Shown: positions 1,072 through 21,258, numbered from the stretch's first letter. The stretch: DNA of 23,585 nt from a virus (IMGVR_UViG_2565956613_000007), one strand, 5' to 3'. The notes: generated by a model from the letters alone, not told the origin. Numbers and translations are program-made.

Positions 1072-1401
1072 GTGCTTGACACACAGGAATTAGCTCCAGT
1101 TGCTATTGCGCTCCTGCTTTCAGTAATTGGTGGGATAGGCACGTTCCTGATGGATGTCCGAGACGGTCGCCAGTCTGGCAATTTGTTGGGATTGGTTACG
1201 GAGATCTTTGTTGCAGTGACAGCTGGCGCGGTGGCGTACCTATTGGGGCAACACGAGGGCTGGGAGTTATCAATTACGTACTTAATGGTAACGATAGCCA
1301 GCAATAACGGTCATGAGGTGATTTCAGGGATGAAACGAGTGAATATCGATAGCATTCTGAATGTTCTTACAAGTTTGGTGAAAAAGGGAGGCGGGAAATG
1401 A
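1072..1401 (+). CDS. lydA: Holin-like membrane protein (109 aa)
   Basis: GTG start 6 nt downstream of GGAGGG. Hydrophobic segments (VAIALLLSVIGGIGTFL, IFVAVTAGAVAYLLG) and a charged C-terminus. Position immediately upstream of the Dar operon matches my memory of P1 lydA; the symbol rests on synteny. Confidence 0.6.
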   Translation: MLDTQELAPVAIALLLSVIGGIGTFLMDVRDGRQSGNLLGLVTEIFVAVTAGAVAYLLGQHEGWELSITYLMVTIASNNGHEVISGMKRVNIDSILNVLTSLVKKGGGK

Positions 1402-1841
1402 TTGGCTGGGGTGTATGCGTTCTTGCGTTAGCCTTAGCCGATCGCTATTTGCTAAAACGCAAGGACATCACGCATTTAGAACTTGGTGATGTGGAAATTA
1501 AACCGGGTTTCATCCGGGTGCCGTTCAAGTACCGGTCTAAATTCCCGTTTTTGCGCGGCGCAACGGTCAGATATTGGATCCGCGATGTTCAGAAGCCGAC
1601 GACAGTGATTGAAGGTGAACAACGTTGTCTGACGTCGGCTGAACAGGGCGAAAACAGTGAATGGTTGTACATACCCACTGAATATATGGGTAAAGGAGAG
1701 CGACTGTGGCATTTCAACGTCATGGTTACGCATGGCGACTCGTTCATTAACCCGTTGTATCGGATTTTCCCTGTTACTCAGCAAATCCGCAGAAGTTACG
1801 TAATAAATCTCGCACAGGATGTGTCAGATGACGAAAAATAA
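1398..1841 (+). CDS. lydB: Antiholin-like protein (147 aa)
   Basis: ATG overlaps the lydA stop (ATGA) with GGAGG 7 nt upstream, so it is translationally coupled to the holin. Symbol by synteny with P1 as I recall it. Confidence 0.55.
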   Translation: MIGWGVCVLALALADRYLLKRKDITHLELGDVEIKPGFIRVPFKYRSKFPFLRGATVRYWIRDVQKPTTVIEGEQRCLTSAEQGENSEWLYIPTEYMGKGERLWHFNVMVTHGDSFINPLYRIFPVTQQIRRSYVINLAQDVSDDEK

Positions 1842-2430
1842 GTATGCAACGGTCGATTTTGACCAGGTTAATGAAAAGGGGCTGAAATCCCTTATCGCGG
1901 CGATCAATAAAACCGGTGTTACGGTAATTGAGGTTGACTCCAGCAACCGCGCAACAACGAAAGATGGCGTTAAAGTTAAAACCGCAAAGCTGGTTCTTAA
2001 CGACGGACAAATTCTTGCCATACAGGTAAACGATACTGGCGATATATCGTCTGTGAAGCTGAATGGAAAAGCTATTCCTAACGCTCAGTCGCCGGATATC
2101 AAGACGCTTGGTACCGTCATGGGACAGGCGGCCCGCAAAAACTCCGCAAAATTCCAGAAATCACTGATCGCCAAAGCGAAGCGTGTTGCCAATCCGGTAG
2201 ACAAGAAACCGGCAGTTAAATCCAACTTTCAGCGCCTGCAAGAAGCAAAACAGCGGAATGCTCAGGTGGTTGCCGCTTATAAGTCCGCGCAGAATTCGGT
2301 GTCTTTCAATCAACAGCAGATCACTGATTTGCGGGCGAAGCTGGATAAGGAGACGGGCCGACTCAATAACGAAAAGGCACGGAATGGCGAACTCAAACGT
2401 CGTCTTAAGCAACTGAAAGCAGGAAATTAA
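1828..2430 (+). CDS. hdf: Hdf, DarA-related protein of the Dar antirestriction operon (about 200 aa)
   Basis: Preferred start ATG 1828 (AGGA 8 nt upstream) rather than the track start 1819. Shares the heptapeptide KNSAKFQ and a similar basic, K/A-rich context with the next ORF (darA), consistent with Hdf being a homolog of a DarA fragment. Confidence 0.6.
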   Translation: MTKNKYATVDFDQVNEKGLKSLIAAINKTGVTVIEVDSSNRATTKDGVKVKTAKLVLNDGQILAIQVNDTGDISSVKLNGKAIPNAQSPDIKTLGTVMGQAARKNSAKFQKSLIAKAKRVANPVDKKPAVKSNFQRLQEAKQRNAQVVAAYKSAQNSVSFNQQQITDLRAKLDKETGRLNNEKARNGELKRRLKQLKAGN

Positions 2431-2431
2431 C

Positions 2432-4351
2432 ATGGAACAGTTCAATATCAATAAAGGGGTGACGATCAAGCCTGGGCTTGACGTGCTTCCCCCGCCAGTG
2501 ACTGATGATGAATATCGCGCATTAATGGCCGGTGAGGACCGCTATCTGATGACGGAATCCAACACCCTGGAGGAAATCGAGGCTACGTTCTTCTATGACA
2601 CGCCGATCCACTGGTGTGCTACGGATTTACTGGAGGCGATTAGTTCTACTCGTTTGCAGTTACACCGGACCATGCAGGCATTTGTCCGGGCATTGAACCA
2701 GAAGCTGAATGGTACCGGAATCTCTGCGGGGAGTGATAAAACGGGGGATGTGGCCCAGAGCGGCGCGCGCGCGATCGGCGGCGCTGAAATTGGCCGGGCA
2801 CGTAACGTTAACGGGCTGCCGGTCCTGCCAGCCATTATTCCGCTCAGTGATGGTCAGACTATCAGCATTCTGTTTCATAGCCCGACAGCGGAAAACCGGA
2901 TCACCAATAGCGATACGCTGGTTGCTTTCCAGTTCTTACTGAATAAAAAAGACGTTACTCACACCGTTGCTCCGATGAGTGGACGTGATATGACGCTGGC
3001 GCAGGTCACCATGAAACTTGCCAACCTTGCAGAGAAAAACTCGGCAAAATTCCAGCGTGCGCAGAAGAAGAAAAAAGCCCTTGTTGATGAAATAACCCAA
3101 CTACAGGCTGACAGTGACCAGAAAGAGGATGCCATGAGCGACCTCGCGGATCAGGTGGCAGCGGTAGAAGGGCAGAAGGCAGATCTGGAGCAGAAAATTA
3201 ACGCTGTTGCATCGGAAGCGGATTCTCTTTATGAAGAGAATGAGCGTTTGCAGACGGAGATTGATCAGCTCAATCGCACTGGTGGGCGCGATACCATTGC
3301 TCCAGCGGGGATGACTGGTGGGCACTCTCGCGCGCTGACGGATCGCCTTGCCAGTATCAAAAATCGTATGCATATGAACGGGGAAGTGACGCTCAGTAAT
3401 GGAGCATCAATGAAGCAATTCATTGAGGACGGCGAAGGGTATATCCAGTTAACCGATTCGGATGGCAGCGTGTACATGATCAAGGCTAAATCCATACAGG
3501 GTGTGGACATGGCAGATGCGATCGGCAAGCTGTTTAAAGCCTATAAAGCGGGTAATGTATCGGAATATCTGGTCCAACCAGAAGAACATAAACCGGAAAA
3601 CGTCGAACCTGAACCAGCGGAGGATACCGGTAGCTCTTCGCCTGAACCAGAAGTCTCTGTAGGTGCATATCGATATGCCTTGCAAATGCGTCCGGCGGCC
3701 CCTGGCGCAATACCTGAAGGTAACAAAGCAATTCTGCCGCGCCCTGATGAAGGTGACCCGTATTATGAATATGCACGCTACGGCATTGCTACTTACGATA
3801 CCCCGCTTTCTGATCAGCAAATGAGTGAGTACGACCTGAAGTTATTGCCTCGCGAGGATTCTTTCGACTTCCTGGCGAAGACACTTACTAATGGTCCGTT
3901 TGGCAAATATGCACAAAAAGCTCTGGATCTGGCCACCAGCTCACCAGACGAGTTCCGCGTAATGCTGAAAACTCAGTTTCAAAAAACTTTCCCCAATATT
4001 GCGTTTCCGGGGGGCGCAGGCACCGAGAAAATGGTGCAGAGCATGATCAATGCATTGCAGGCCGAAGTCGGTGAGATTACTCAGCCAGAACCTGCCCCGG
4101 CACAGCCTGATGAAACGGTTAGCGAAGCAGATGCAGAGGCTAATAAAGCCATTGAATATCTCAATAACGTGATGGATATGCAAAGCACTGACATGGCGGA
4201 GATCCGTAACGCCCGGGGTAATGTCCGGGAAGCGATTGCAGCCCTTCAGGCTGCCGGGCGTTTTGAGGAAAACGAAGAGCTGGTTAATGGCGCTGCTCGC
4301 CACCTGGCTGATCTGCTGGTAGCAATCCAGAAAGCGGGGGTAGCGGCATGA
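2432..4351 (+). CDS. darA: DarA-like virion antirestriction/head morphogenesis protein (639 aa)
   Basis: AGGA 8 nt upstream of the ATG. Size and position (hdf-darA-ddrA-ddrB order) match the P1 dar operon as I recall it. Contains coiled-coil-like segments (QLQADSDQKEDAMSDLADQVAAVEGQKADLEQKINAV). Confidence 0.68.
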   Translation: MEQFNINKGVTIKPGLDVLPPPVTDDEYRALMAGEDRYLMTESNTLEEIEATFFYDTPIHWCATDLLEAISSTRLQLHRTMQAFVRALNQKLNGTGISAGSDKTGDVAQSGARAIGGAEIGRARNVNGLPVLPAIIPLSDGQTISILFHSPTAENRITNSDTLVAFQFLLNKKDVTHTVAPMSGRDMTLAQVTMKLANLAEKNSAKFQRAQKKKKALVDEITQLQADSDQKEDAMSDLADQVAAVEGQKADLEQKINAVASEADSLYEENERLQTEIDQLNRTGGRDTIAPAGMTGGHSRALTDRLASIKNRMHMNGEVTLSNGASMKQFIEDGEGYIQLTDSDGSVYMIKAKSIQGVDMADAIGKLFKAYKAGNVSEYLVQPEEHKPENVEPEPAEDTGSSSPEPEVSVGAYRYALQMRPAAPGAIPEGNKAILPRPDEGDPYYEYARYGIATYDTPLSDQQMSEYDLKLLPREDSFDFLAKTLTNGPFGKYAQKALDLATSSPDEFRVMLKTQFQKTFPNIAFPGGAGTEKMVQSMINALQAEVGEITQPEPAPAQPDETVSEADAEANKAIEYLNNVMDMQSTDMAEIRNARGNVREAIAALQAAGRFEENEELVNGAARHLADLLVAIQKAGVAA

Positions 4352-4713
4352 CACTATCAGCTATTGAGTTAATGGATCTCAGCGATAAGTTGGATGCTCT
4401 GATGTCCAAAGCGGCTACCGCGAGTGGCATGGAGTTGCTGGATATCAGCGATGAAATTGACCAGATCATGCAACAGATGGGGTACGGTGTGTCCGGCGGC
4501 AGTAGTGGCGAGGAAAAACAACCTGCGGTACATGATGGTGTGCCAAAACTGGTTGCTGATTTCCTGGCTGATAAATTCGTCGATCAGAGCACCGATGCAT
4601 TTATCGGTACCTTGCAGGATTTGAGTCAATATGTTGGCACATACATCGACCTGGACCAGGTTAAACAGCACACGGCGGCATGGATAGCCGCCAACATTAA
4701 AGAGGCAGCATAA
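4348..4713 (+). CDS. ddrA: DdrA-like small acidic protein (121 aa)
   Basis: ATG overlaps the darA stop (ATGA), so it is translationally coupled. Acidic protein in the position of P1 ddrA. Confidence 0.58.
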   Translation: MTLSAIELMDLSDKLDALMSKAATASGMELLDISDEIDQIMQQMGYGVSGGSSGEEKQPAVHDGVPKLVADFLADKFVDQSTDAFIGTLQDLSQYVGTYIDLDQVKQHTAAWIAANIKEAA

Positions 4714-4725
4714 GGCGTAACAGGG

Positions 4726-7713
4726 ATGAGCTTAAGCGATCAGGTGGTAATGGCCACCAGCATAGAAACGCTGATCGAGCTGCTAAAGAACCTGCCCGAT
4801 TATGGGCGGGTTTCGTATGTGGTGACAGCGAAGGGAGACGAGGTAAAAACAGCGTTTGATATCGTCGATGCCTCAGTTCTTTTGGTATCCAATACTCTGG
4901 ATGGGAAAATTAATCCAGACTATCCCCAGGAACTTCAGCCGCGCGACCGGACCCGCGCATCCAGCCTTCTTCAGGTCAACCAGATATCCAAGGATTTGCG
5001 TCCTGCCCAGCTTACCGATTCCGGTTTATCCAGCCATGGCGCGCCAATAATTGGTGAGGACAATGCCGTTGAGTCAGGTAATGGGCGGACCATGGGGATC
5101 ATTAAAGCCTATCAGGACGGTAATGCGGATCGGTATCGGGAGTACCTGATTGAACATGCGACCGAATTCGGCATACGGCCTGAAAAGGTTGAATCAATGA
5201 CGGCTCCGGTACTGGTGCGCCGCCGGTTAACGAAGGTTGACCGTGTTCAGTTTGCCAAGGACTCAAATATTTCTGATCTCCAGGAAATGGCAGCCAGTGA
5301 AAAGGCTTTTGTTGATGCCGACAGCATAACACCGGCGATGATGGCGCTTTTTAACCCGTCAGAAAGCGGAGATCTGCTTAGCCGCAGTAATGACGCGTTT
5401 ATTCGCGGATTTATGACGCAAGTTGGTGCCACACAGGCGGCTGGCCTTGTAACTGAAGATGGGCGACCAACACGGCAACTTGTAGACCGTATACAAAACG
5501 CGATCTTTGCCAAGGCATATAAGGATGCGCGCCTGGTAAGGATGGTTGCAGAAGAACCTGATCCGGATATGCGTAATGTTCTGACGGCGCTTAATGCGGC
5601 AGCCAATGATTTTGTCCAGATGCAGGCTTTATCAGGAGAAGCGCACAAGCAGGCTGTGACAACTATTGTTGATGGCATTGAGACAGCGGATAGCCTCGAT
5701 AAAAAGGCGCTGGCGGCATTGAAAGATGCGGTAGACCTGGTAAGGCAATCGAAGGAGTCAGGCCAGCATATTACCGATGTTATTGCTCAGGGGGATATGT
5801 TCAGCGAAACGGCCCCGGAAGTGAAAGCACTCGCGTTGTTCATCGTCGCGAATAACCGTAGTGCGAAGCGTATGGCCACCGCCTTTAAGTTGATGGCGCA
5901 ACGTATCAATGATGAGTTACAGCACCAGGGCCAGGCGCTCGGGGATATGTTTGGCGGCGGCGATGTGTCGTTACAGGATATCCTTCGCCAAGTATCTCAG
6001 GAACTGGAAAACGAAGGTATGCAAGGGATATCTGGCGGTCTTTTCGAGTCAGCTTCTGGCGGTAGTTACAACGGTGTTGCTCCATATACCAGCTTGCTAT
6101 TACATCGGGCATCCGGCATCAAAGACATTATTCATCTGATCAGGCTGCTTTCCCGTACAGATCCCCAGGATGAACAGCTTGTTCAAGTGCTTGCGCATTT
6201 TGTTCGAATGCCTGTTGCCGACGTGAAAAAATGGTGCCGATTATTCGGTATCAGCAATTCGTTACTTCGCGGCTTGTTAAATCACGCATCCTCCCTTGGG
6301 CGCGATGGCTTTGACGAGATAGCGCAGGCGATAAAAAACGGAGATATGCCACCAGCTATTGACTGGTTTTCCATTCGCCCAACCAGGGTGAAAGCATTCC
6401 TTAGCGCGGCGCAATCAGTATCACCATTGGCAGAAATGGTTCAGAGGTTATCGCTCATATTCACAGACCATACCGCGTTGGGAGATCTGACTCTGGACGA
6501 GATGAAGGAAGCCTCCATTCAGTGGGCCGATCAACAAAATGAGGTTAACTCAGACTTCTTGCCAGCATTCAGGAAGGCCGTTAGTAAAGCTGATGATGCC
6601 CGTGGAATTCTGAAGGCATTTAAGGCATTGCAAAGTCAGGTTAATAAACATGTCGGTGATATCGATGGGGTAACGGCGGAAGGCAGGGATATCCTTAAAG
6701 AGCACGGCATAACGCCAGAGTTTATTGATGAGATCAGGACTGATATGCAGCGTGAGGTCGTATCGTCACTGCAAATCGTAGCCAGAGCGTTGGCGGATGC
6801 TAATCCGAAGAGTGCGGCCATTGTTAACCGTGTTATTGGTGATATTGAAGCATCGGAGGGCATGGGGGCGCTGAAACTCTTCCTTTCGCGAGCGTTTAAT
6901 CCTAACGGCAATATTCTCCCCGGCATTATTGGTGAGGCTAAAAAGTATGTCAGCGAAGAAGAACTTGAGCAGCTTGACCAACTACTTAAGCGATTCTCAT
7001 ATAACCCGCAGACACGCTGGCAAATGAATCAGCGAAGTATGGGTTCGGTCCACGAGAAAGTGTTATCTGCCATGAACAGTGCGATCGCAAACTCATCCGT
7101 ATCTGAAGAAAAAGCTCTTGAGTGGGCCGACTCTTTTATCACGGAAGAAGTGGAAGAAGCCCGCGCTGGACAGAATGGTGGGATAGACCTGCGCAAGGAA
7201 CTTGCTGATATTTATCGCCTGACCGGCGGTAAAATTTCGACCTTATCAAAGGTGGTTCACCACCAGGGAAGGGCATATGCAAATCTTAATGGTGTTGTTG
7301 CTGTCAATTTGAACGATGAAAATGCAAGTGCACTGTGGCACGAGCTGGGTCATCATCTTGAGTACAGTAACCCTGGTTTGTTAGAGAAAGCCCGGTCATT
7401 CCTGAAGGCCAATGTTGAAGGGGATAAGCCATCTTTCGTTAATATCGGTGGGCGTGGCAAGCCTGAATGGTGCTTCAGATCTCGATTGAGTAATATTTAT
7501 ATGGCGAAGGTATACCCGCCAGCCTCAGTAAGTAACACCGGGAAAATTCGGCAGAAATCACCGACTATTTCCAAAACGTCAGCAACGGAAGTATTCTCTA
7601 TGGCTCTTCAGTTGTATCATGACAAAGAGGCCGCTGCCGCATCACTGATGAATGGTGACGGATTGCTGGAACTGTTATTAGGTGTGGCAAAGGAGCTAAA
7701 TAATGCAGATTAA
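4726..7713 (+). CDS. ddrB: DdrB-like large protein (995 aa)
   Basis: Long uninterrupted ORF directly downstream of ddrA on the same strand. Size and position match P1 ddrB as I recall it; no enzymatic motif recognised. Confidence 0.62.
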   Translation: MSLSDQVVMATSIETLIELLKNLPDYGRVSYVVTAKGDEVKTAFDIVDASVLLVSNTLDGKINPDYPQELQPRDRTRASSLLQVNQISKDLRPAQLTDSGLSSHGAPIIGEDNAVESGNGRTMGIIKAYQDGNADRYREYLIEHATEFGIRPEKVESMTAPVLVRRRLTKVDRVQFAKDSNISDLQEMAASEKAFVDADSITPAMMALFNPSESGDLLSRSNDAFIRGFMTQVGATQAAGLVTEDGRPTRQLVDRIQNAIFAKAYKDARLVRMVAEEPDPDMRNVLTALNAAANDFVQMQALSGEAHKQAVTTIVDGIETADSLDKKALAALKDAVDLVRQSKESGQHITDVIAQGDMFSETAPEVKALALFIVANNRSAKRMATAFKLMAQRINDELQHQGQALGDMFGGGDVSLQDILRQVSQELENEGMQGISGGLFESASGGSYNGVAPYTSLLLHRASGIKDIIHLIRLLSRTDPQDEQLVQVLAHFVRMPVADVKKWCRLFGISNSLLRGLLNHASSLGRDGFDEIAQAIKNGDMPPAIDWFSIRPTRVKAFLSAAQSVSPLAEMVQRLSLIFTDHTALGDLTLDEMKEASIQWADQQNEVNSDFLPAFRKAVSKADDARGILKAFKALQSQVNKHVGDIDGVTAEGRDILKEHGITPEFIDEIRTDMQREVVSSLQIVARALADANPKSAAIVNRVIGDIEASEGMGALKLFLSRAFNPNGNILPGIIGEAKKYVSEEELEQLDQLLKRFSYNPQTRWQMNQRSMGSVHEKVLSAMNSAIANSSVSEEKALEWADSFITEEVEEARAGQNGGIDLRKELADIYRLTGGKISTLSKVVHHQGRAYANLNGVVAVNLNDENASALWHELGHHLEYSNPGLLEKARSFLKANVEGDKPSFVNIGGRGKPEWCFRSRLSNIYMAKVYPPASVSNTGKIRQKSPTISKTSATEVFSMALQLYHDKEAAAASLMNGDGLLELLLGVAKELNNAD

Positions 7714-8042: not shown

Positions 8043-8831
8043 TTAATCGCTTTCCACTTCTTCCGTGGTGTTTTCTTGCAGTTCTGTTAATGCAGCACGA
8101 CATAGGTTCCGGGCATTGGCTATAGCCACACTTTTGACTTCATCCGTCATCGTGCAGGTAATGTACTGATCGAGTTCTTCAGCGCGGATGATGCTTTTGC
8201 CAATCAGAAACTGTATTTGCCAGAGCAGATCGGCATCCATAATCAGAATTTCTGCCGGGCCTTCAGGGCCAGCCGGGAAGGAAACATAAGACTGTTTGCC
8301 CAGGCCGATAACTCGACAACTTGCTTCAAGAATTGCGCGCTTGAGGTCTGACTTTGTAACGGAAACAGGTTGGTTTTCACCAGTGATTATGCCGTTGACA
8401 TGGAAATGGAAGGGCATGTAGCTTGAAATACGCTCTACTTTCCACACGCCAGCAAGCGATCCTTCATGCAGCACAATGGGGGTAACCGCGAGTTTCATCT
8501 CACCATATAACTGCTGGCAGATAGCTGGATTGCTGAATACATCCAAAGGTTCACACTCAAACAGCGGCGCAATCTGCATGAGGTCCATCATGGTCATACC
8601 AGGGGTACGAGCAGTAATGAATCTGCGCATGCCAGTATCCATTGTGCGCCAGATAGCTACACCATGCTTTTTGCTCACTTCTTCAGTAAAGCCAAGGTGG
8701 CACATGATGGTTTTTTCGATAGCCAGATCAGAGATCGAAACCTTTTCGCCAGGCACACCATCATTATTGATGGTCACTTCGACACTCTGACCATTACGCA
8801 GGCGGTATTGAATTGCTTTAGTATTTTCCAC
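8043..8831 (-). CDS. Hypothetical protein (262 aa), last gene of the ssb operon
   Basis: GTG start 6 nt after the stop of the upstream gene, preceded by GGAG. No motif recognised. Confidence 0.55.
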   Translation of the reverse strand: MENTKAIQYRLRNGQSVEVTINNDGVPGEKVSISDLAIEKTIMCHLGFTEEVSKKHGVAIWRTMDTGMRRFITARTPGMTMMDLMQIAPLFECEPLDVFSNPAICQQLYGEMKLAVTPIVLHEGSLAGVWKVERISSYMPFHFHVNGIITGENQPVSVTKSDLKRAILEASCRVIGLGKQSYVSFPAGPEGPAEILIMDADLLWQIQFLIGKSIIRAEELDQYITCTMTDEVKSVAIANARNLCRAALTELQENTTEEVESD

Positions 8832-8837: not shown

Positions 8838-9515
8838 TCACTCCACTACAAACCAGTCACATGCCAGTAAGTCGCCTACAGAAGGAACCCACGGAACAAC
8901 TACACCTTGTGCATTTTTTAAGGCGAAATAAGCACCATACGGAACGAGGTCGCCGGGGAAATATCCCTTAATGGCTTCCATTCGTGCCGGGTACTGTCCT
9001 TCAGGAACCAGCCAGCAGAATTGGTTTTCGCCGTTCCACCCGCGTCGAGCAACTTTCTTGCCATCCTTCAGCCACATCAGCGCGTCAGAAAAGTCGGCTG
9101 CTTCAAGGTCGATTTCTTCTTGTAGAGTAGCGATACCGCCAGCAGAAATAGTTACGTCCCTGGCTGTAATGAATGTCACCCCATTGTGACCTTCAATGCT
9201 GAGCGATACCCCATTTTCGAAGAAGTCGTTAGTCCGACTAAAGCCTTCTTCAAATGTTTTTTCTGGTGAATAGGACAGAGATCCGTCCTCATAAGCGACC
9301 AGATATCCGCCAATTTCTGGTCGGTGTTTTTGCAAAAACATTTTATCAACATGGACTTTTACCCCTTCTGGCTCAACGACTTCGATGTTGCAAAGAAGGA
9401 CCACATCCATTAGGGCGATAATTTCGATATCTTTGATTTTTGAGGCGCGAACTGTTTTATGGCTTTTGTATTTTGGAAGTGCCGTCAAAAGCTCTTTCGT
9501 TGTCATGTTATTCAT
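8838..9515 (-). CDS. Two-domain protein (225 aa) with a C-terminal DUF2829/Tad2-like domain
   Basis: Preferred start ATG at 9515 with the strong SD GAGGAAAG; the track extends it to 9683 without good initiation signals. C-terminal segment FSDALMWLKDGKKVARRGWNGENQFCWLVPEG ... GDLLACDWFVVE fits the pattern I associate with DUF2829 (the family that includes the Thoeris anti-defence protein Tad2). This is a from-memory assignment. Confidence 0.55.
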   Translation of the reverse strand: MNNMTTKELLTALPKYKSHKTVRASKIKDIEIIALMDVVLLCNIEVVEPEGVKVHVDKMFLQKHRPEIGGYLVAYEDGSLSYSPEKTFEEGFSRTNDFFENGVSLSIEGHNGVTFITARDVTISAGGIATLQEEIDLEAADFSDALMWLKDGKKVARRGWNGENQFCWLVPEGQYPARMEAIKGYFPGDLVPYGAYFALKNAQGVVVPWVPSVGDLLACDWFVVE

Positions 9516-9529
9516 AGTCTTTCCTCTGC

Positions 9530-9712
9530 TTAAAACCTGATGTCTTGCGCCTTCAGGTGGGTCAGGAATGTTTTCCCACCAGCGAAAGCAATATCTCGGG
9601 GTGTTCTTTTCGTGAAAAGCGCGTGCCATTGCCAACTTTGGCGTTTGTTTGCGAGTTCGTGCTTTTGTCGGCGTCTGGACCACCGCTTTTCTTTCAGTCG
9701 TTTTTTACACAT
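9530..9712 (-). CDS. Possible small basic protein (60 aa)
   Basis: The ATG directly abuts the ssb stop (TGAATG) and the ORF ends 14 nt before the next gene start, so it fills the inter-gene gap exactly. Very Arg/Lys-rich. No SD of its own, so low confidence. Confidence 0.3.
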   Translation of the reverse strand: MCKKRLKEKRWSRRRQKHELANKRQSWQWHALFTKRTPRDIAFAGGKTFLTHLKAQDIRF

Positions 9713-10201
9713 TCAAAACGGAATATCGTCGTCAAAGTCCATTGGAGGTTCGTTATTGGCGTTGCTCTGAGGTTTACCGCCACCACTGTATTGCTGGTGG
9801 TTTTGAGGTTGGTTTGATTGCCCCCAGCCATTTGAGGACTGTGAATCGTCACGGCGAGCGCCGATCATTTGCATGGTGCCGCCCTGGCTGACGATAATTT
9901 CCGTCGTGTAACGTTCTACACCGGCGTCATCTGTCCACTTACGGGTTTTAAGTTTCCCTTCGATGTAGACCTGAGAACCTTTTCGTAAATATTCACTCGC
10001 AATTTCAGCAAGTTTTCCGAACAAAACTACTTTATGCCATTCTGTTTGCTCTTTCTGTTGGCCCGTTTGCTTGTCGCGCCATGATTCATTCGTTGCGATG
10101 CTGAGTCTTCCGACCGCGCCGCCATTTGGTATATACCTGATCTCCGGGTCTTGCCCCAGGGTACCAATCAGGATGACTTTGTTTACACCGCGTTGTGCCA
10201 C
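9713..10201 (-). CDS. ssb: Single-stranded DNA-binding protein (162 aa)
   Basis: Classic SSB OB-fold sequence ([18 protein letters not shown] ... [14 protein letters not shown]), a Gly/Gln-rich linker and the acidic C-terminal tail MDFDDDIPF. Confidence 0.92.
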
Positions 10202-10220
10202 TTATCTTACCTAATAAAAT

Positions 10221-10237
10221 AAATTAATTAGAGCAAT
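10221..10237 (-). promoter_or_regulatory. C1 repressor operator-like 17-mer (16 of 17 match to the consensus ATTGCTCTAATAAATTT as I recall it)
   Basis: Seen in sequence: the minus strand reads ATTGCTCTAATTAATTT, located 20 to 36 bp upstream of the ssb start in the ssb/lyz divergent region. Confidence 0.5.
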
Positions 10238-10260
10238 AATGTATATCTTTGAAACGTGGC

Positions 10261-10282
10261 TAACAAGTGATTTGCATTATCC
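10261..10282 (+). promoter_or_regulatory. Putative late-promoter element TAACAAGTGA plus downstream AT-rich hexamer
   Basis: Seen in sequence: TAACAAGTGA at 10261..10270 followed by tttgcaTTATCC, about 90 bp upstream of lyz. The same 10-mer recurs upstream of prt; the ACAAGTGA core recurs upstream of the gene at 22558..23199. Confidence 0.4.
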
Positions 10283-10370
10283 TGTGCCTTCTAAAGGGAT
10301 CGAGTCAGTCGGTATTGGCTGTGAATGAGTGTTTGTCCTGGAGCGTAAAAAATTCGCTTATGAGGTCTTT

Positions 10371-10928
10371 ATGAAGGGAAAAACAGCCGCAGGAGGCGGT
10401 GCAATTTGCGCTATCGCGGTGATGATTACCATCGTGATGGGTAATGGCAATGTGCGAACCAACCAGGCGGGGCTTGAGCTGATTGGTAACGCTGAAGGTT
10501 GCCGACGTGATCCATACATGTGCCCGGCGGGGGTATGGACTGACGGGATTGGTAATACACACGGGGTAACGCCGGGTGTGCGAAAAACCGACCAGCAAAT
10601 CGCCGCTGATTGGGAAAAGAATATCCTGATCGCTGAACGCTGTATTAATCAGCACTTCCGGGGCAAAGACATGCCCGATAATGCCTTCAGTGCAATGACA
10701 AGCGCGGCATTCAATATGGGATGCAATAGCTTACGAACCTACTACAGCAAAGCGCGAGGCATGCGAGTAGAAACGTCCATCCACAAGTGGGCGCAGAAAG
10801 GGGAATGGGTGAATATGTGTAACCATCTCCCTGATTTCGTGAACAGTAACGGCGTGCCCCTGCGAGGTTTAAAGATTCGCCGTGAAAAAGAACGCCAGCT
10901 TTGCCTGACAGGACTGGTCAATGAATAA
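10371..10928 (+). CDS. lyz: SAR endolysin, T4-lysozyme-like fold (185 aa)
   Basis: Preferred start ATG 10371 (GAGG upstream). N-terminal signal-anchor-release segment AAGGGAICAIAVMITIVMG. With this start, Cys13, Glu42, Cys44, Cys51 and Thr57 fall at the positions I recall for P1 Lyz. Confidence 0.88.
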   Translation: MKGKTAAGGGAICAIAVMITIVMGNGNVRTNQAGLELIGNAEGCRRDPYMCPAGVWTDGIGNTHGVTPGVRKTDQQIAADWEKNILIAERCINQHFRGKDMPDNAFSAMTSAAFNMGCNSLRTYYSKARGMRVETSIHKWAQKGEWVNMCNHLPDFVNSNGVPLRGLKIRREKERQLCLTGLVNE

Positions 10929-11175
10929 ACTCCGGCAGCTCCGCCGACTTTCGACAATGAAGTTATCGCTGGCGGCGATAGTTTTCGACTCGATTTTCAT
11001 GGCGGTATATGTGCTCAATGAGACGTGGCCACTGGAACCGCTATTGTATGCTGGGCTTCGGCTGTGCCTGACATTTTTGAGCATGGCTGCAAGATTGATG
11101 CAGCAGAAAGAAACCGCTTCAGATTGTCCACGCCGCGCGGTGCGCAAATATATGGCACGCAGGCGAAGGCGATAA
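10921..11175 (+). CDS. Small membrane protein (84 aa) with a poly-Arg C-terminus, translationally coupled to lyz
   Basis: ATG overlaps the lyz stop (ATGAATAA). Hydrophobic core LSLAAIVFDSIFMAVYVL and C-terminus RKYMARRRRR. Possibly lysis-associated; function not established. Confidence 0.45.
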   Translation: MNKLRQLRRLSTMKLSLAAIVFDSIFMAVYVLNETWPLEPLLYAGLRLCLTFLSMAARLMQQKETASDCPRRAVRKYMARRRRR

Positions 11176-11188
11176 TAGTTAACGAGAA

Positions 11189-11214
11189 CCCCGGCAGCCG
11201 CCGGGGTTATTTTT
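11189..11214 (+). terminator. Rho-independent terminator after the lyz operon
   Basis: Seen in sequence: CCCCGGC-agcc-GCCGGGG stem-loop followed by TTATTTTT. It lies between the convergent lyz operon and pro. Confidence 0.7.
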
Positions 11215-11219
11215 GGTGG

Positions 11220-13950
<2,731 letters not shown>

Positions 13951-13984
13951 TTAATTAGAATAATTCGCATCGTGTTTGAACGGA

Positions 13985-14016: not shown

Positions 14017-17000
14017 ATGAACAAGCTATCTATGGGGGTGTTTCGCTGTTCAAGTGTCAGCGAAATATTGAAATACATTAGGGCAATAACATCTCACCGA
14101 GCGCCGATTAGATACGGCGTGGAAAAGGTGGAAGGCAAAAGCTATGACCGACTACGCCGGGAGGCGAATCAGAAGGCGATTGATTTGCTTAATTCGCTGG
14201 TGGACGGCGCGACACTGACAGATGAACAGCGCCAGATCCTGGCTGGGTACACCGGTGAAGGCGGCATTGGCGGGTCCGTCTCCGAATATTACACACCAAA
14301 GCCGATCGCTGAAGGTGTCTGGGAGATCATGAAGCTCTACGGCGCGGACGTAGGTAACACTCTGGAACCATCGGCGGGCACCGGCGTTTTTAATGAGACA
14401 AAACCGGTTGGTACGGTGATGACTGCGACTGAGATCAGCAGTGTTTCCGGTCGTATAAACCAGCTGTTACACCCGGAAGACAGCGTACAGATTTCCCCGT
14501 TCGAACAGCTGGCTGTAAGCACGCCTAACGATTCATTCGACCATGTTGTGGGTAACGTTCCGTTCGGTGGTCGTGATAACACACGCAACATCGATAAGCC
14601 TTACGCAGAAGAAACGGACATGGGTTCTTACTTCATGCTCCGCATGCTGGACAAGATAAAGCCAGGCGGATTCATGTGCGTGATTGTGCCGCCGTCCATT
14701 GTTTCAGGTTCAAACATGAAGCGGTTACGCCTGCGCCTATCACGGAAAGCTGAATTTCTTGGTGCTCACCGCTTGCCTACCGGTACTTTTGACGCAAACG
14801 GGACCAGTACAGTCGTTGATGTGGTGCTGATGCGCAAACATCCGGCAGAGATGGCTGAGAAAATCCCCCTGGTGGATGAAAGCACTCTTGAATCGGCAAA
14901 TGTGCTTTGGCCAACGTTTATTTCTGGCAAGTGGTTTGAAAAGGACGGTCGCCGGTTTGTTCATGGCACCCAGGAGAAGGGATTCCAGGGGCGTATTGAG
15001 GTTCGTGCCGACGGGCAGATTGATAACCAGGCTCTTAAAGCGAAGCTGATTCATCGTTTCGAAAGTCGTATCGACTGGTCTTTACTCAATATGGCTGAAC
15101 CGTCACCGACCGCAGACGTTGTTGATGAAGGGGAAATGCGCCTGATTAATGGCGTATGGCAAAAATATGCTGGTGGTCGCTGGATTGAATCTGATGCAGG
15201 GAAGGAGCTGAAGATTGATGTTGCCAGTTATGGCGCGGACAGCTGGGAGGCTCTTCAGCGTAACCTGACTACAACAGAAGGCCGTCTCGGTATGACATTT
15301 ACCCAGATGGCAAATGTCCGCGATAAGTACACCACATCAATCAGCGACGATATGGTGCAGCTGGTGGACTGGATTAACAGCCAGCCTGAAAAATACCGTG
15401 AACGCTTGTATCGCGGGGCGATGATTGGCCGGATGTTAATTGAATATCAGGACATGAAGGCCGCCGGGCATAGTGCTGAACAAATCGAACAGCAGCGCCT
15501 TTCTCTGGTATCCCGTTTGCAGGCAGAGATTGACCGTTTTGGTAACCCCGGTCGCGGTCCGATAGCGAAATTATCGGGGAGCGGTGCGCGCGCCTGGTTT
15601 GCTTTCCGTGGTGCAATTAAGCTGGATGGCACTATTTCTGACGAGCTGACAGGAAAACTGGTTACGCATGATTCCAGCGCCAGTTATGACTCCACCAGCT
15701 ATCAGGACACCCTGCGTTATCTCTACAGTGATCTCACTCGCGATCCAATCCAGCTCGATGATTTCCGCCTTGCGTTTACCGGCGAACTGCCAGCCAGTGA
15801 TGACGAGTTGCTTAATTTATTGGCCAGCACCCCTGGCATTGCGGTTTCACCGTATGGCGGGATTGTTCCGTTCGCCCGCGCCACCAGCGGAGACATTAAC
15901 GAGATAGTGGCACCAAAACAGGAATTCCTTGCCACACTCCCCGACGGTCCAGTAAAGAACAACGTCCTTAATCAGCTGGCAGCGATCGAAGAGAAGCGCA
16001 TCAAGACGCCAGCAGAGAATATCCGCTTTAAGCTCAATAGCCGTTGGTTCGACCGTTCCGTCATTCTGGAATTTTTGCAGGAAAACGGCTATCCGGATCT
16101 TCGCTATGTGCAGTCAGTGCAGCTGGAAGGCGACGAAATGGTTTCTGACACCTATCACGGTGGTGATGGTCTGTTCGTCGGGCACCGATACGGTGTTGTC
16201 CAGCGCAAGGATAAAGAAACAGGCGAGATCCGCTACGAGTGGGACCGTAAATCAGGTGAAAACGCGACCGGGTTCCCGGCACAGCTGGAAAAGTATCTCA
16301 ATGGTGCGCGTATCGGTGGCAAAGATAGCGCGACGGCGAACGGCTACCGCGAGCAGATGGCACTGCTTGAGGACCAGTTCAATAAGTGGATCAAGACGCA
16401 CGATCGCTACGATGAACTGGTTGCCAAATACAACGATGTGTTCAATAGCAATATCCCGTATGAACACTCTGGCGATCCGCTTGGGTTGAAGGGATTAAGC
16501 GGTAAGCGCCAGCCATTTGATTACCAGAATAGCGAAGTGCGCCGACTGTCCGAAGATGGGCGCGGCATCCTGGGCTTCGGCACCGGGCTGGGTAAAACTA
16601 CGACCGCGCTGGCGCTTGAAGCGTTCAACTATGAGAACGGTCGCTCCACCCGTACTGCGTATGTAGTGCCTAAATCAGTGCTGGAAAACTGGTATTACGA
16701 AGCAAAAGAATTCCTGAGTGAAGAGGCATTCAGTAACTACCTGTTCGTCGGTCTTGATGTGCTGATGGATGGCGATCAGATTCGCCAGGTGCCGGTGCTC
16801 GATGAGAACGGTAAACCTGTTCTTGGTACTGATGGCACTCCAGTTATGCGCGATGCCCTAAAACTGGCAGATGAAGCCACTATCACGGCGCGGATGAACG
16901 CGATCCCGCACTCAAATTACCGTGCAGTCGTGTTTACCAAAGAACAATACGCCCGCATTCCGCTACGTGATGACACCGTAGATGAGCATGCACAGGATAT

Positions 17001-20000
17001 GCTTTATGACTTCGTTGCCGCCGGGCGCGTAGCCAGCGCAATGGACTCCGACTCCCACCGCAAAGAGGCCGCGCGTCGCCGGGTATTGTCGGAGTATTCA
17101 GATACCGGCACCGAAAAAGCAGAGAAGTATCCGTACTTTGAGGATATGGGCTTCGATAGTGTGATCGCTGACGAAGGTCACAACTACCGCAATAGCTATA
17201 AAAATGGTCGCGAAGCGTCACAACTGGCCTATCTGCCCACCAGCGCGGTGGCGCAATCGGCGCGGGATATGGCAATTAAAAACGCGTACCTGATGAAAAA
17301 GAATGGTGGGCGCGGACCGGTTCTCCTGACTGCAACGCCAGTCGTTAACACCCCGATCGATGCATACAACATGCTTTCTCATGTGCTGCCGAAGGAATAC
17401 TGGCAGAAGATGGGGATCTACGGTCCTGATGACTTCGTTAAATTCTTCGGCAAGACCAGGCTGGAAACGGTACAGAAAATCAGCGGTGAAGTTGAAGAAA
17501 AAATGGCGCTGGTGGGCTTTGAAAACCTTGATGCGCTGCGCGGCATATTCCATCGCTGGACAACGCTTAAAACGGCGGAAGACGTTAAGGATACCGTGGA
17601 GATCCCGGAACTGGACGAGCACCAGCAGGATGCACCACTTACTGAAGAACAACTGGCGGCGTATGAAGAATTACGTCAGCAGGCGGAAGCGGCAGCAAAA
17701 GCCAACAATGGCGTAACGACCTCGGTCAATGAAGACGGCGTGATTGAGCACGAGAAAGCCCGTCCGATCTTCTCAATAATCAGGGATATGGACCGCGTAT
17801 GTACTGACATGGACCTGTACTATCGCAGGATCACCTATCGTTTCCTGCCGGAGTACGCCGATGCGGTGCAGCAGCTGGCGGACAGTTTGCCTAAACAAGC
17901 CACCAGCGAAGACGACGACAGTGATGATTCAATCACGCAGCAATCGCAATACTCCCTGATAGATAAGGGCGAGTTTATTCAGTTGCAGGTTCCGGAAGCG
18001 TTCGAGCAGGAAGTGAATAAGCGCCTGGCCAGGTTTGGCATTGACGAACAGACCGTAACTCACCCCGTTACACCCAAATACGCGAAGCTGATCGCCACGC
18101 TGAAGGAGTTTTTCCCGGAAGGTAAGCAAATCATCTTCACGGACGAAAAAACGCAGCACCAGAAGCTCAAGCGCATTATCTGCAATGCTCTTAACCTTGA
18201 ACCTTCAAAGGTGGGGATCCTGAATGCTCAGACGGTTGCCGAGGCAGGTAAAACCGGTAAGAAACTGAAAGCGGTTAAACCGCCGAAAGAGTTACCGGAT
18301 GAACCAACAGATGCACAGATAGCGAAATACAACGAGCAAATGGCTCTGTATGACGCCTATATCGCGCAGCAAAATGAAATGTCGTTGGGCGGTCTGGAAA
18401 AGATTGCTGCCGACTTCCAGGAGGGCCGGACCCCGATCATCATCTGCAACAAAAAGGCAGAGGTGGGTATCAACCTGCATCGAGGAACGACTGACATCCA
18501 TCATCTGACGTTGCCATGGACACCAGCCAGTATCGCACAGCGTAACGGTCGCGGTGCCCGAGTTGGCTCCAACCGTGCAAGCGTACGCGTTCACTACTAC
18601 TGCGGCAAAGGTTCTTTCGATGAATACCGACTGAAGACGCTGAAGCGTAAAGCAGGCTGGATCTCCGATATCCTCCGTTCAGATAAGTCAGAAATGGAGA
18701 ACGCCGACGCCAACGATATGATCGAAATGCAGATGTATACCGCTAAGGATGATGGCGAACGTCTGGCAATGATGCAGGTTCAAATGGATAAGGCGAAAGC
18801 CGCGCAACGCGCTCGCCAGAAAGAACAGGCTACTATCGACCTTCAGAACTACATCAAGGCGCAGCACGCAGCTGGCGAGGATGTGGAGGTACTTACCGCT
18901 GAATTAGAGCGAAGCAAAGCGGAACTTGAAAAGACCACCGCCGAGGTAGCTAAATTCAAACAGACGGTAATGGCCAAAGCAGCTGATAACGCAGACTGGA
19001 AGGCCCGCTGGGGTAGCGTCCATCACACAGACCGTACGTTGTTAGCACAGTATCGCGCGTCGTTGAAAAGCGCCATTCAGCGCAAGGCTAATATCTCTCA
19101 AGCCATCTCCCGCTATGAGAAATTATTGAACCGTACTCAGAAGGCCGCGACGGATATCAAACGCCTGCGCCCGCTGGTGGAGGATGCAATAAATAAAGGC
19201 ATTCTGGATGTTGATCCTGATCTGGTTAACCATGCGAATAAGTTCCTTGTTATCGGCGATCGCTCATGGCGTGTAGGCCAATACTACGATTGTGCCGGTG
19301 ATATCGTTCGCATTAAGTCGCTGGACTTCGACAGCCAGCGCGCAGACGTGGAGATCATCTTTACCTTCAAAGGCACCAAATCGGGTAACTGGGATGTGAA
19401 GACGCTGGATAAACAGGTGGATGTAACTCCCGATGAAGATGCTGTTATGCAGAAAATCAGTGGTGGCGTCTCCATCGCCGGGATTAATGACATCATTTCC
19501 TGTGACGATTTCTACCGTTTCCAGCAGCGCGGCATGATCAAAATCACTGACTCATACGGCGTTCAGACTACAGAGTCAGGCTATAGCATTGATTTTGTTG
19601 GTACCTATACGGCCCCACTGAAGCATGCGGTTTACCCGGATCGCCGTGACGGCGCGCTGAAGTCGTCAATTGCAAAATGGGTGCTTGGTATGATGTCGGA
19701 AGGGAATAACCGCCAGATCCGTTCGGCAGAAACATTCCTGGTTGAATTGTTTGGCTCCAATTATGGCGATGTAATCGCGTCATACGGAGATACGCTATCC
19801 CCTGAAGCAATTCAGGAGAAAATAGTGGATGCGATCGCAAAAATGCCGGAGAAAACAAGCCAGGGGGCTACTCGTAACGGGGATTCTGAACTTGAGGTCA
19901 CCAATGCCATTTTCGGTACCCATGAGTTCCGGGCGTCAGATTATGAGATCACCACAGCACAGTTTGGCACTATTGGCATTTACAGCAATAAAGCCGATAT

Positions 20001-20784
20001 CAAGCAGGCAATGGACGCAGCAAGCGCGCGCATCGCAGCAGAACGGGAAGCCAATCTGAATCATGCAGTCGCCGCACTGACTCAATCGTGGGTAACAGCA
20101 ATCAGGGAGGCCGCCACCACAGGGAAAATCACACCTGCAATTGCGGATGTCGTAAACGACGGCTCTAAATTTATGGATGCCTATAAAATGGATTCGGTGC
20201 AGTTGCCATCAGCCTATGGCCAACTCAGCTATCGCATGACCTACAACCTGGTATCAATGTTTTCCGACCTTGCCATCCTTGGGCTGGTGGATCTTAACGA
20301 GGTTACGCCGGAATTGCTCAGCATGCGCAAGAATCATGTGGAGATATTGCAGAGAATTAACACGGTTCTTGCCGGGCGCACCGATGAAGAGAAACAGGCC
20401 GACGCTGATCGGATAAACCTGGCCCTTGGCAACATCACGGAGGAAGAAATTGCCGCCAGAAACGAGAAACAAGAAGAGTTATCATCAATACAGGGTGATG
20501 CCACCAGCATAGCTCAGTCTCTTGGTCTGAATTATCGCGTATCCACCGCCGACCTGAAGATGATGTACGCACCAAAATTCGCCGCTGGCGAGGTATTTGG
20601 GCTTCAGGAAGCCTCAGGCATGAAAGGCGTTCTTTTCCGTGCCAAAGACGCAATCAAGGCGAAATTCGGCGCTCGCTGGCTGCCAGCGAAGGCGAAGAAC
20701 AGCGATTTCCCGGGTAACTGGTGGATTATCGAGACAAAACACAACGTGGCGGACGTTCTGGCCGTCATCCAACAATACGCATAA
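14017..20784 (+). CDS. darB: DarB-like giant antirestriction protein: N-terminal N6-adenine methyltransferase motifs plus an SF2/SNF2-like helicase domain (2255 aa)
   Basis: AAGGA 6 nt upstream of the ATG. SAM-binding motif LEPSAGTGVF (14362..14391), catalytic-type motif VGNVPFGG (14548..14571), Walker A GFGTGLGKTT (16573..16602), DEGH box (about 17167..17181) and motif VI QRNGRGAR (about 18538..18561). Length matches my recollection of P1 DarB. Confidence 0.88.
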   Translation: MNKLSMGVFRCSSVSEILKYIRAITSHRAPIRYGVEKVEGKSYDRLRREANQKAIDLLNSLVDGATLTDEQRQILAGYTGEGGIGGSVSEYYTPKPIAEGVWEIMKLYGADVGNTLEPSAGTGVFNETKPVGTVMTATEISSVSGRINQLLHPEDSVQISPFEQLAVSTPNDSFDHVVGNVPFGGRDNTRNIDKPYAEETDMGSYFMLRMLDKIKPGGFMCVIVPPSIVSGSNMKRLRLRLSRKAEFLGAHRLPTGTFDANGTSTVVDVVLMRKHPAEMAEKIPLVDESTLESANVLWPTFISGKWFEKDGRRFVHGTQEKGFQGRIEVRADGQIDNQALKAKLIHRFESRIDWSLLNMAEPSPTADVVDEGEMRLINGVWQKYAGGRWIESDAGKELKIDVASYGADSWEALQRNLTTTEGRLGMTFTQMANVRDKYTTSISDDMVQLVDWINSQPEKYRERLYRGAMIGRMLIEYQDMKAAGHSAEQIEQQRLSLVSRLQAEIDRFGNPGRGPIAKLSGSGARAWFAFRGAIKLDGTISDELTGKLVTHDSSASYDSTSYQDTLRYLYSDLTRDPIQLDDFRLAFTGELPASDDELLNLLASTPGIAVSPYGGIVPFARATSGDINEIVAPKQEFLATLPDGPVKNNVLNQLAAIEEKRIKTPAENIRFKLNSRWFDRSVILEFLQENGYPDLRYVQSVQLEGDEMVSDTYHGGDGLFVGHRYGVVQRKDKETGEIRYEWDRKSGENATGFPAQLEKYLNGARIGGKDSATANGYREQMALLEDQFNKWIKTHDRYDELVAKYNDVFNSNIPYEHSGDPLGLKGLSGKRQPFDYQNSEVRRLSEDGRGILGFGTGLGKTTTALALEAFNYENGRSTRTAYVVPKSVLENWYYEAKEFLSEEAFSNYLFVGLDVLMDGDQIRQVPVLDENGKPVLGTDGTPVMRDALKLADEATITARMNAIPHSNYRAVVFTKEQYARIPLRDDTVDEHAQDMLYDFVAAGRVASAMDSDSHRKEAARRRVLSEYSDTGTEKAEKYPYFEDMGFDSVIADEGHNYRNSYKNGREASQLAYLPTSAVAQSARDMAIKNAYLMKKNGGRGPVLLTATPVVNTPIDAYNMLSHVLPKEYWQKMGIYGPDDFVKFFGKTRLETVQKISGEVEEKMALVGFENLDALRGIFHRWTTLKTAEDVKDTVEIPELDEHQQDAPLTEEQLAAYEELRQQAEAAAKANNGVTTSVNEDGVIEHEKARPIFSIIRDMDRVCTDMDLYYRRITYRFLPEYADAVQQLADSLPKQATSEDDDSDDSITQQSQYSLIDKGEFIQLQVPEAFEQEVNKRLARFGIDEQTVTHPVTPKYAKLIATLKEFFPEGKQIIFTDEKTQHQKLKRIICNALNLEPSKVGILNAQTVAEAGKTGKKLKAVKPPKELPDEPTDAQIAKYNEQMALYDAYIAQQNEMSLGGLEKIAADFQEGRTPIIICNKKAEVGINLHRGTTDIHHLTLPWTPASIAQRNGRGARVGSNRASVRVHYYCGKGSFDEYRLKTLKRKAGWISDILRSDKSEMENADANDMIEMQMYTAKDDGERLAMMQVQMDKAKAAQRARQKEQATIDLQNYIKAQHAAGEDVEVLTAELERSKAELEKTTAEVAKFKQTVMAKAADNADWKARWGSVHHTDRTLLAQYRASLKSAIQRKANISQAISRYEKLLNRTQKAATDIKRLRPLVEDAINKGILDVDPDLVNHANKFLVIGDRSWRVGQYYDCAGDIVRIKSLDFDSQRADVEIIFTFKGTKSGNWDVKTLDKQVDVTPDEDAVMQKISGGVSIAGINDIISCDDFYRFQQRGMIKITDSYGVQTTESGYSIDFVGTYTAPLKHAVYPDRRDGALKSSIAKWVLGMMSEGNNRQIRSAETFLVELFGSNYGDVIASYGDTLSPEAIQEKIVDAIAKMPEKTSQGATRNGDSELEVTNAIFGTHEFRASDYEITTAQFGTIGIYSNKADIKQAMDAASARIAAEREANLNHAVAALTQSWVTAIREAATTGKITPAIADVVNDGSKFMDAYKMDSVQLPSAYGQLSYRMTYNLVSMFSDLAILGLVDLNEVTPELLSMRKNHVEILQRINTVLAGRTDEEKQADADRINLALGNITEEEIAARNEKQEELSSIQGDATSIAQSLGLNYRVSTADLKMMYAPKFAAGEVFGLQEASGMKGVLFRAKDAIKAKFGARWLPAKAKNSDFPGNWWIIETKHNVADVLAVIQQYA

Positions 20785-20790
20785 CAGGAG

Positions 20791-20808
20791 CGCCCGGTTC
20801 GCCGGGCG
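20791..20808 (+). ncRNA. GC-rich hairpin with a UUCG tetraloop between the SD and the ulx start codon (structured mRNA element)
   Basis: Seen in sequence: CGCCCGG-ttcg-CCGGGCG, a 7-bp stem, lying between AGGAG (20786..20790) and the ATG at 20818. Confidence 0.5.
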
Positions 20809-20817
20809 TCGCATAAT

Positions 20818-21258
20818 ATGGCCACACTATCTGATACAATAAAACCGAATAAAACATATCTTGAGGCGGTACTCCGTACAGCGTTGTTAGGAAAGACAGA
20901 AGACGAATACGTTGATTTCTTCCTGTCAGGGCTACGCGGGCGATTACTGAAAAATCCCCGCCTGTACCGCAGCTATGGTCCATACTGGCCGGAAATTAAA
21001 AAATTATTACTGGAGCGCGGTTATGGTAATTTCGGTCGTCTCGTTGACCGTGACGTTCGCAAAATTTACCGTTATGACCGCCCGGCGCTGACGCTCATAG
21101 CTGCGACGCTCTACAGCCAGGAGCGTTTTGATAATGGTCAGATATACTCAGCCTGGCATTTACTGCCAGTGCCTGAAGAGGTTGACGACCAGGACTATGA
21201 GTTTGAGTCTTACGATTTGGAAGTTGAAGCCTTAGCACAGGCTGGAGAGAAAACTTGA
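20818..21258 (+). CDS. ulx: Ulx-like protein (146 aa)
   Basis: Position directly downstream of darB on the same strand and upstream of an 82-aa ORF matches P1 darB-ulx-lxc as I recall it. No motif recognised. Confidence 0.5.
   Translation: MATLSDTIKPNKTYLEAVLRTALLGKTEDEYVDFFLSGLRGRLLKNPRLYRSYGPYWPEIKKLLLERGYGNFGRLVDRDVRKIYRYDRPALTLIAATLYSQERFDNGQIYSAWHLLPVPEEVDDQDYEFESYDLEVEALAQAGEKT

Follow-up and report, generated by a model that had tools for sequence, protein, structure and literature searches.

Phage P1 and its relatives are the closest described systems to the DNA considered here, and the start codons of P1 genes are laid down in a curated record (AF234172, NC_005856). This genome annotation is reportedly owed to Lobocka et al., in 2004. 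The present work deals with a stretch of 23,585 nucleotides (nt) of viral DNA (IMGVR_UViG_2565956613_000007), referred to as the window at its full length, and with the codons at which four of its genes begin: lydA, a gene for a protein of 262 amino acids (aa), prt and lxc. An original prediction, made from the sequence of the window, had placed all four starts at GTG or TTG behind strong ribosome-binding sites, had regarded them as a notable concentration, and had suggested that they may tune the expression of lysis and morphogenesis proteins. Our results indicate that the four gene-start calls are very probably right and well supported, and that they are ordinary near-cognate starts in known P1 genes, occurring at normal frequency.

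The whole window matches P1 and its relatives at ~98% identity (megablast), and the starts under study therefore belong to one of the best-annotated phages. The equivalent region of P1 lies on the minus strand at ~2.6-32 kb, with the order cin-lyd-dar-ssb-lyz-pro/prt-darB-ulx-lxc-mat; the IS1 and res/mod genes of P1 are lacking in the window, which is a P1-like phage/plasmid segment. For lydA, prt and lxc, the curated P1 record gives these same codons as starts, and an earlier independent entry, AJ000741, likewise annotates the GTG of lydA.

Initiation at such codons is well understood in general terms. The initiator N-formylmethionyl-tRNA (fMet-tRNA) reads GUG and UUG with a mismatch at the first position, so that the proteins still begin with (formyl)methionine. 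In E. coli reporters, initiation at GUG or UUG amounts to 10-100% of that at AUG. For the genes studied here, pairing of a Shine-Dalgarno (SD) sequence located 5-9 nt upstream would position the 30S subunit at the GUG or UUG, and initiation would be expected to be somewhat less efficient than at AUG.

Position of the start codons and strength of their ribosome-binding sites

All four codons were found at the predicted sites, and both their identity and their positions are directly shown by the analysis. The holin gene lydA (1072..1401, plus strand, 109 aa) opens with GTG 1072-1074, the first start in its open reading frame (ORF); the 262-aa gene, which is IsaA-like and belongs to phrog_2326 (8043..8831, minus strand), with GTG 8831-8829; the portal protein gene prt (12232..13941, minus strand, 569 aa) with TTG 13941-13939; and lxc, formerly bof, which encodes a C1 co-repressor/modulator of 82 aa (21255..21503, plus strand), with TTG 21255-21257. 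As had been proposed, none of them is preceded by an in-frame ATG. Each is the first ATG, GTG or TTG past an in-frame stop, from which it is separated by 6 (lydA), 2 (262-aa gene), 3 (prt, where the stop is TAA) and 9 (lxc) sense codons, and an upstream in-frame ATG is therefore impossible. The next in-frame candidate is an ATG at codon 27 in lydA, and a GTG at codon 19 in the 262-aa gene, at codon 35 in prt and at codon 27 in lxc.

An SD at workable spacing, 5-9 nt upstream, is also present in all four cases. That of lydA is AGGAGGG (1060..1066, plus strand), 5-6 nt before the GTG (6 nt for AGGAGG). The 262-aa gene has GGAG (8844-8841, minus strand) 9 nt before its GTG, within a site (8838..8844) that overlaps the TGA (8840-8838) of an upstream Tad2-like gene, while prt has AAGGTG (13947..13952, minus strand) 5 nt before its TTG. 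For lxc, GGAGAG (21244..21249, plus strand) precedes the TTG by 5-7 nt (7 nt for GGAG) and lies inside the 3'-terminal part of ulx, and the TTG itself overlaps the TGA of ulx (21256-21258).

The strength attributed to these sites is borne out for lydA only. Its predicted duplex with the anti-SD of the 16S 3' end has an energy of -10.7 kcal/mol, which places it 8th among 106 P1 genes, whereas prt (-6.2 kcal/mol, rank 42), lxc (-6.4 kcal/mol, rank 35) and the 262-aa gene (-6.5 kcal/mol, rank 34) are at the P1 median, which is -5.9 kcal/mol. Over the 106 genes, SDs are not stronger in non-ATG than in ATG genes (Mann-Whitney p=0.45). As no such difference was seen in P1, the idea that stronger SDs compensate for non-ATG codons was rejected.

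Frequency of non-ATG starts

The four genes are correctly named as non-ATG genes, but the list is incomplete, as it omits ssb (9713..10201, minus strand, 162 aa). This gene opens with GTG 10201-10199, immediately after an in-frame stop with zero sense codons in between, and this GTG is the only start codon within the first 59 codons. Entry AF125376 annotates it together with a ribosome-binding site, and it is present in 75 of 75 reliable P1-like loci, relatives of ~83% identity included. Codons 2-59 show an excess of third-position and synonymous changes, and the SD is weak (AGGT, -3.8 kcal/mol). The N-terminus of Ssb appears to align with residue 1 of E. coli SSB.

In contrast to the alleged concentration, four non-ATG starts among the 22 genes of the window do not exceed a baseline of 18% (binomial p=0.58), nor do the five well-supported starts of the count corrected for ssb (5/22, p=0.36). 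When all annotated non-ATG starts are counted, adding the dubious lydE and the opening of a 281-aa ORF, the figure becomes 7/22 (p=0.085). The first of these additions, lydE, a putative antiholin gene of 71 aa (11025..11240, plus strand), lies inside lydD in another frame and is weakly supported: its P1-annotated GTG has a weak SD (-2.9 kcal/mol), the aligned position is ATG in the JK004 clade, and the gene is unannotated in JL22 and SJ46.

The baseline itself is unremarkable. The 106 coding sequences of the curated P1 record comprise 87 ATG, 13 GTG and 6 TTG starts (82.1/12.3/5.7%), and published values are 81.8/13.8/4.35% in bacteria with good annotation and 83/14/3% in E. coli. Within P1, the segment homologous to the window carries 7 non-ATG starts in 25 genes versus 12 in 81 for the rest of the genome (Fisher p=0.145). 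Taken together, the window is no richer in non-ATG starts than an E. coli-type genome would be; P1 annotation already records these starts, and what they reflect is the usual choice of start codons in bacteria.

Comparative support for the starts of lydA, prt and lxc

Between the proposed start and the next candidate, substitutions of coding type were found in prt, lxc, the 262-aa gene and ssb, the genes with enough loci for this comparison. In addition, ATG, GTG and TTG interchange at the aligned ortholog start in lydA, prt and lxc.

In the case of lydA, the Pfam LydA-holin family PF16083 (holin superfamily III) aligns from residue 12 to residue 85 (30.1 bits against a cut-off of 28.4), which places the start upstream of residue 12. 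Orthologs begin with GTG in JK004 and in an Enterobacter hormaechei plasmid, and with ATG in D6 and in an E. marmotae plasmid. Counted by lineage, there are three with GTG and two with ATG, and a GGAGG-type SD is retained before the gene in all five compared lineages.

The first 60 codons of prt contain no ATG. Its TTG is present in 81 of 81 P1-like loci, and the SD is kept as GAAGGTG in JK004-type loci. A survey of 166 loci shows that the aligned start position is kept in 14 of 14 portal lineages, as TTG in four, ATG in nine and GTG in one; an interim reading, according to which the TTG would be conserved across the whole family, was dropped when this wider scan found ATG in 9 of the 14. In several Pantoea-type loci TTG is the sole possible prt start. 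Codons 2-34 carry 31 synonymous versus 15 nonsynonymous changes. With respect to the protein, chain C of PDB 9UMS (P1 Prt, 569 aa) aligns over residues 1-569 with 1276 bits, while the Pfam family Portal_T4 remains sub-threshold (16 bits versus a cut-off of 22.9). The cryo-electron microscopy paper on the P1 portal (PDB 9UMS) describes a 569-residue Prt in which only residues 534-569 are unresolved; the structural work is consistent with the TTG start, and is not decisive.

The surroundings of the prt start show some further features. In JK004 (15761-15791) the TAA upstream of the TTG is changed to GAA, which leaves the frame open as far as an ATG located 10 codons upstream. That ATG, which has no SD, was taken as the start by those who deposited JK004, and the TTG with its SD is conserved, so that the prt start of this record is likely mis-annotated. 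In the window (13942-13972, minus strand) the same ATG starts a mini-ORF of six codons, the TAA of which overlaps the prt SD; in P1 it reads ATG-TGA. A sigma-70 promoter for darB is predicted on the plus strand at 13931-13961 (-35 TTGTCT, 13931-13936; -10 TAGAAT, 13956-13961). It spans the start codon and the SD of prt on the opposite strand, and the divergent prt and darB control regions would therefore overlap within ~75 bp.

As in P1, lxc directly follows ulx. Residues 1-82 of the 82-residue protein are covered by phrog_2160 (E=7.8e-57), and codons 2-26 show a coding pattern, with 27 synonymous versus 19 nonsynonymous changes. Among 75 related loci the start is TTG in 73 and GTG in 2, and the TTGA or GTGA overlap with ulx is kept throughout the P1/JK004 clade. 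Over 17 lineages, the gene at this position begins with GTG in nine, TTG in three and ATG in five, although the D6 and Pantoea proteins found there are only probable homologs of Lxc (hhalign E=1.9e-4, probability 48%). Work on bof from 1990 is said to have included purification of Bof/Lxc and to have reported a TTG start.

The 262-aa gene and the Tad2-like ORF upstream

The 262-aa protein aligns with phrog_2326 from profile position 1, and codons 2-42 of its gene carry eight synonymous versus two nonsynonymous changes, distributed 0/2/8 over the codon positions. All 16 reliable P1-like loci have GTG at the start. Homologs in D6-like plasmids, which are 47% identical, share the GTG, the gene junction and the first 14 codons. 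Past codon 14 they diverge, and an 8-codon indel ahead of the first ATG is in-frame, so that the frame stays open. For the intact IsaA-like gene of 262 aa, a GTG start is thereby supported for the first time by comparison.

Upstream on the same strand lies a 281-aa ORF (8838..9683, minus strand) with a C-terminal Tad2-like/DUF2829 domain, which opens with GTG 9683. This codon might be counted as a further missed non-ATG start, yet it was rejected as such because PHROG alignment, SD strength and substitution pattern all favor a downstream ATG. Its SD is almost absent (-0.9 kcal/mol, rank 97/106), and phrog_872 and the D6-type DUF2829 homologs start at residue 57 of the ORF, where an ATG is preceded by GAGG 7 nt upstream. 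Codons 2-56 show 25 nonsynonymous versus 6 synonymous changes (16/10/5 over the codon positions), without a third-position excess and with a non-coding look. GTG 9683 is thus probably an over-extended start, the likely true one being ATG 9515-9513, which would give a protein of 225 aa. With this start, ~200 nt of apparently non-coding DNA would lie between ssb and the Tad2-like gene. The failure of GTG 9683 shows that the first start codon in the longest ORF need not be the true one and, since a wrong start fails them, that the tests passed by the four claimed starts do discriminate.

The comparison also bears on isaA of P1 (320 aa; 9924-10886 of the P1 record), which is annotated from the GTG of the 281-aa ORF. 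It proved to be a fusion, located next to IS1, in which residues 1-65 of the 281-aa ORF are joined to residues 2-262 of the 262-aa protein, from which it follows that most of the upstream Tad2-like gene is missing from P1. The window and D6-like plasmids have the intact cassette, in which a gene of the DUF2829/Tad2-like type (Thoeris anti-defence 2, PF11195) precedes the phrog_2326 gene by 6 nt.

One public record had to be set aside in these comparisons. Salmonella phage SJ46 (NC_031129, identical to KU760857) has the sole apparent ATG at the start of the 262-aa gene. It carries ATG at nine of the nine P1 GTG starts that its record annotates (lydA, isaA, the Tad2-like ORF, ssb, dmt, gene 24, pmgN, pdcB and pacA), and it is unchanged at all four P1 GTG starts that lack an SJ46 annotation and at all five TTG starts examined. 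The deposited sequence looks as if it had been edited at annotated starts, and not shaped by evolution. SJ46 was discarded as evidence because the changes track annotated GTG starts only; this annotation-linked pattern rules it out as a case of natural GTG/ATG interchange for the 262-aa gene, lydA, ssb and the 281-aa ORF.

Reliability of the start calls

According to the most direct objection, the codons are mis-annotated, the real starts being ATG or GTG codons downstream and the N-terminal extensions untranslated. Over-extension does occur in the window, where a TTG or GTG heads the long ORFs of pro, lyz and mat although their annotated starts are downstream ATGs, and where GTG 9683 fails as described above; the upstream ATG annotated for prt in JK004 is a further instance in a relative. 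However, the N-terminal segments of the claimed genes bear coding signatures and are covered by family profiles, there are orthologs with a sole possible start at the same position (loci L096-L098 for prt, JK004 for lxc and lydA), and prt offers no ATG near its 5' end. Mis-annotation of this kind is thus highly improbable.

Some observations nevertheless weigh against our reading that the calls are right and the codons ordinary. Reliable orthologs of the 262-aa gene show no different start codon at the aligned position, and because of this lack of interchange the GTG codons 19 and 26 of that gene are excluded only indirectly. The supplement of a virion-proteome study contains no Prt peptides. 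Finally, in two clades the TTG of prt has been retained beyond neutral expectation, which hints that not all of this codon usage is neutral.

Probable translational coupling and start-codon choice

How the genes are translated may depend on their place in the transcription units. In P1, lydA is the first gene behind the late promoter LPdar and prt the first behind LPpro, and ssb follows its own promoter; on account of these positions, the three genes must initiate de novo, and lydA and prt rely on their own SDs. For lxc and the 262-aa gene, the close or overlapping junction with the upstream cistron makes it probable that they are partly translated by coupling. In this regard, the 6-nt junction between the 262-aa gene and the Tad2-like gene is found in P1-like and D6-like elements, and its conservation in D6-like plasmids suggests coupling.

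Coupling of this kind could relax constraint on the start codon: where its identity matters little, GTG and TTG would drift in and persist. The start of lxc either forms a TTGA/GTGA overlap or lies -8 to +15 nt from the ulx stop in 17 of 17 lineages while switching among TTG, GTG and ATG; the 262-aa gene of P1-like as well as D6-like elements begins 6 nt past the upstream stop, which its SD overlaps; and dmt of P1 has the same GTGA-type overlap. On the other hand, constraint relaxed by coupling cannot account for the promoter-proximal lydA, prt and ssb, and the three lxc promoters annotated inside ulx in P1 imply that lxc may be translated independently too. We therefore consider it a plausible but tentative account, somewhat less probable than its contrary. 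A selective account would hold that weak codons were favored for dosage, in keeping with few portal subunits per capsid, a low level of Lxc and the timing of the holin. The prt gene provides one argument for it: TTG is kept in nine of nine sequences from the P1/JK004 clade and the Pantoea clade despite saturated synonymous sites (synonymous divergence, dS, >1.7), while of 106 four-fold sites with T in P1 only one is retained in those nine sequences, two are retained in at least 9 of 11 sequences, and five within the P1/JK004 clade. This 11-sequence sample was picked before start codons were looked at. Furthermore, the gene at the lxc position is non-ATG in 12 of 17 lineages versus ~18% expected, and in the P1 clade lxc makes no use of ATG, even though the change would be synonymous for Ulx (ACN or AGR before TGA). 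Of the 11 genes that stand first behind a late promoter of P1, 5 also have non-ATG starts (prt TTG, 23 TTG, pmgL TTG, lydA GTG and pacA GTG) versus 14 of the 95 other genes, a difference with Fisher p=0.025 that is post hoc and uncorrected. Leader length behind the late promoters, inspected by eye from annotated coordinates, showed no obvious difference for the non-ATG first genes.

Against dosage selection stand the portal lineages with ATG (9 of 14) or GTG (one) at the same position, and the free switching of lydA between GTG and ATG. The notion that a weak codon marks a low-copy protein is contradicted by gp23, the major capsid protein and most abundant virion protein, whose gene has a TTG start in P1 and JK004 and a GTG start in D6. 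In addition, neutral-site null tests were not significant (28-37% for lxc never having ATG, 16% for retention of GTG in ssb), the SDs show no systematic difference between non-ATG and ATG genes, and the weak selection on start codons and sizeable neutral range reported by genome-scale studies likewise weigh against it. Dosage selection is possible, though rather improbable, for prt and lxc and unproven in general, and a more specific version is more doubtful still, namely that the UUG of the portal gene and the UUG or GUG of the capsid gene and of the late-operon first genes are kept by selection as part of a translational programme. If true, such a programme would set head-protein stoichiometry or the sensitivity to initiation factor 3 (IF3) or ribosome availability late in infection; what speaks for it is that prt has retained its TTG beyond neutral expectation in two clades and that 5 of 11 first genes in late operons are non-ATG. 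Returning to our reading of ordinary near-cognate starts, the retention of TTG by the portal and capsid genes within clades is its only mildly non-trivial residue. Concerning the suggested tuning of lysis and morphogenesis proteins by codon choice, the evidence is mixed, and such an effect is no more than possible; the choice of start codon could affect portal dosage, the level of Lxc and the timing of lysis.

The significance of these findings lies mainly in annotation quality. The curated starts of lydA, prt, lxc and ssb survive comparative tests, and two entries are flagged, the probably over-extended start of the 281-aa Tad2-like ORF and the apparently altered public record of SJ46.

Neighbouring features

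The gene hdf (1819-2430, plus strand) has two in-frame ATGs three codons apart, at 1819 and 1828. The first is used in the P1 annotation and the second in JL22, SJ46 and JK004, while AJ000741 gives both as alternatives. Between lxc and mat, the window carries a gene for a PIN-domain protein of 316 aa (21565-22515, plus strand; PF16289 PIN_12, PF18476 PIN_8). The same slot holds the EcoPI type III res/mod genes in P1 and a RelA/SpoT-family gene in SJ46, and because its contents differ among the three it is a variable hotspot, probably related to defence.

Comparison with known systems

With regard to the P1 annotation, lydA GTG, prt TTG, lxc TTG and ssb GTG stand at homologous codons, with identical upstream sequence. 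The window differs in its intact two-gene arrangement, since the 262-aa gene is not separate in P1, and in the PIN-domain gene that it has where P1 has res/mod. The junctions resemble known coupled ATGA/GTGA/TTGA overlaps in that lxc and ulx share 4 nt and the lxc SD lies within ulx, and in that the SD of the 262-aa gene lies over the upstream stop. They differ in that coupling is here deduced from geometry and that P1 has annotated internal lxc promoters.

A well-known precedent for regulation through a poor start codon is the AUU of E. coli infC, a sub-optimal codon that lowers initiation and makes it IF3-sensitive. The genes of the window share with infC a sub-optimal start codon; however, the AUU of infC is non-canonical and is part of a feedback loop that has been demonstrated, whereas the codons described here are the common GUG and UUG. 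A further likeness is to the general use of start codons by bacteria, E. coli included, the proportions of which are matched by P1 and which likewise depends on SD sequences and initiator tRNA. Between the two there is no substantive difference, the nominally higher share of TTG in P1 (6/106) not being significant.

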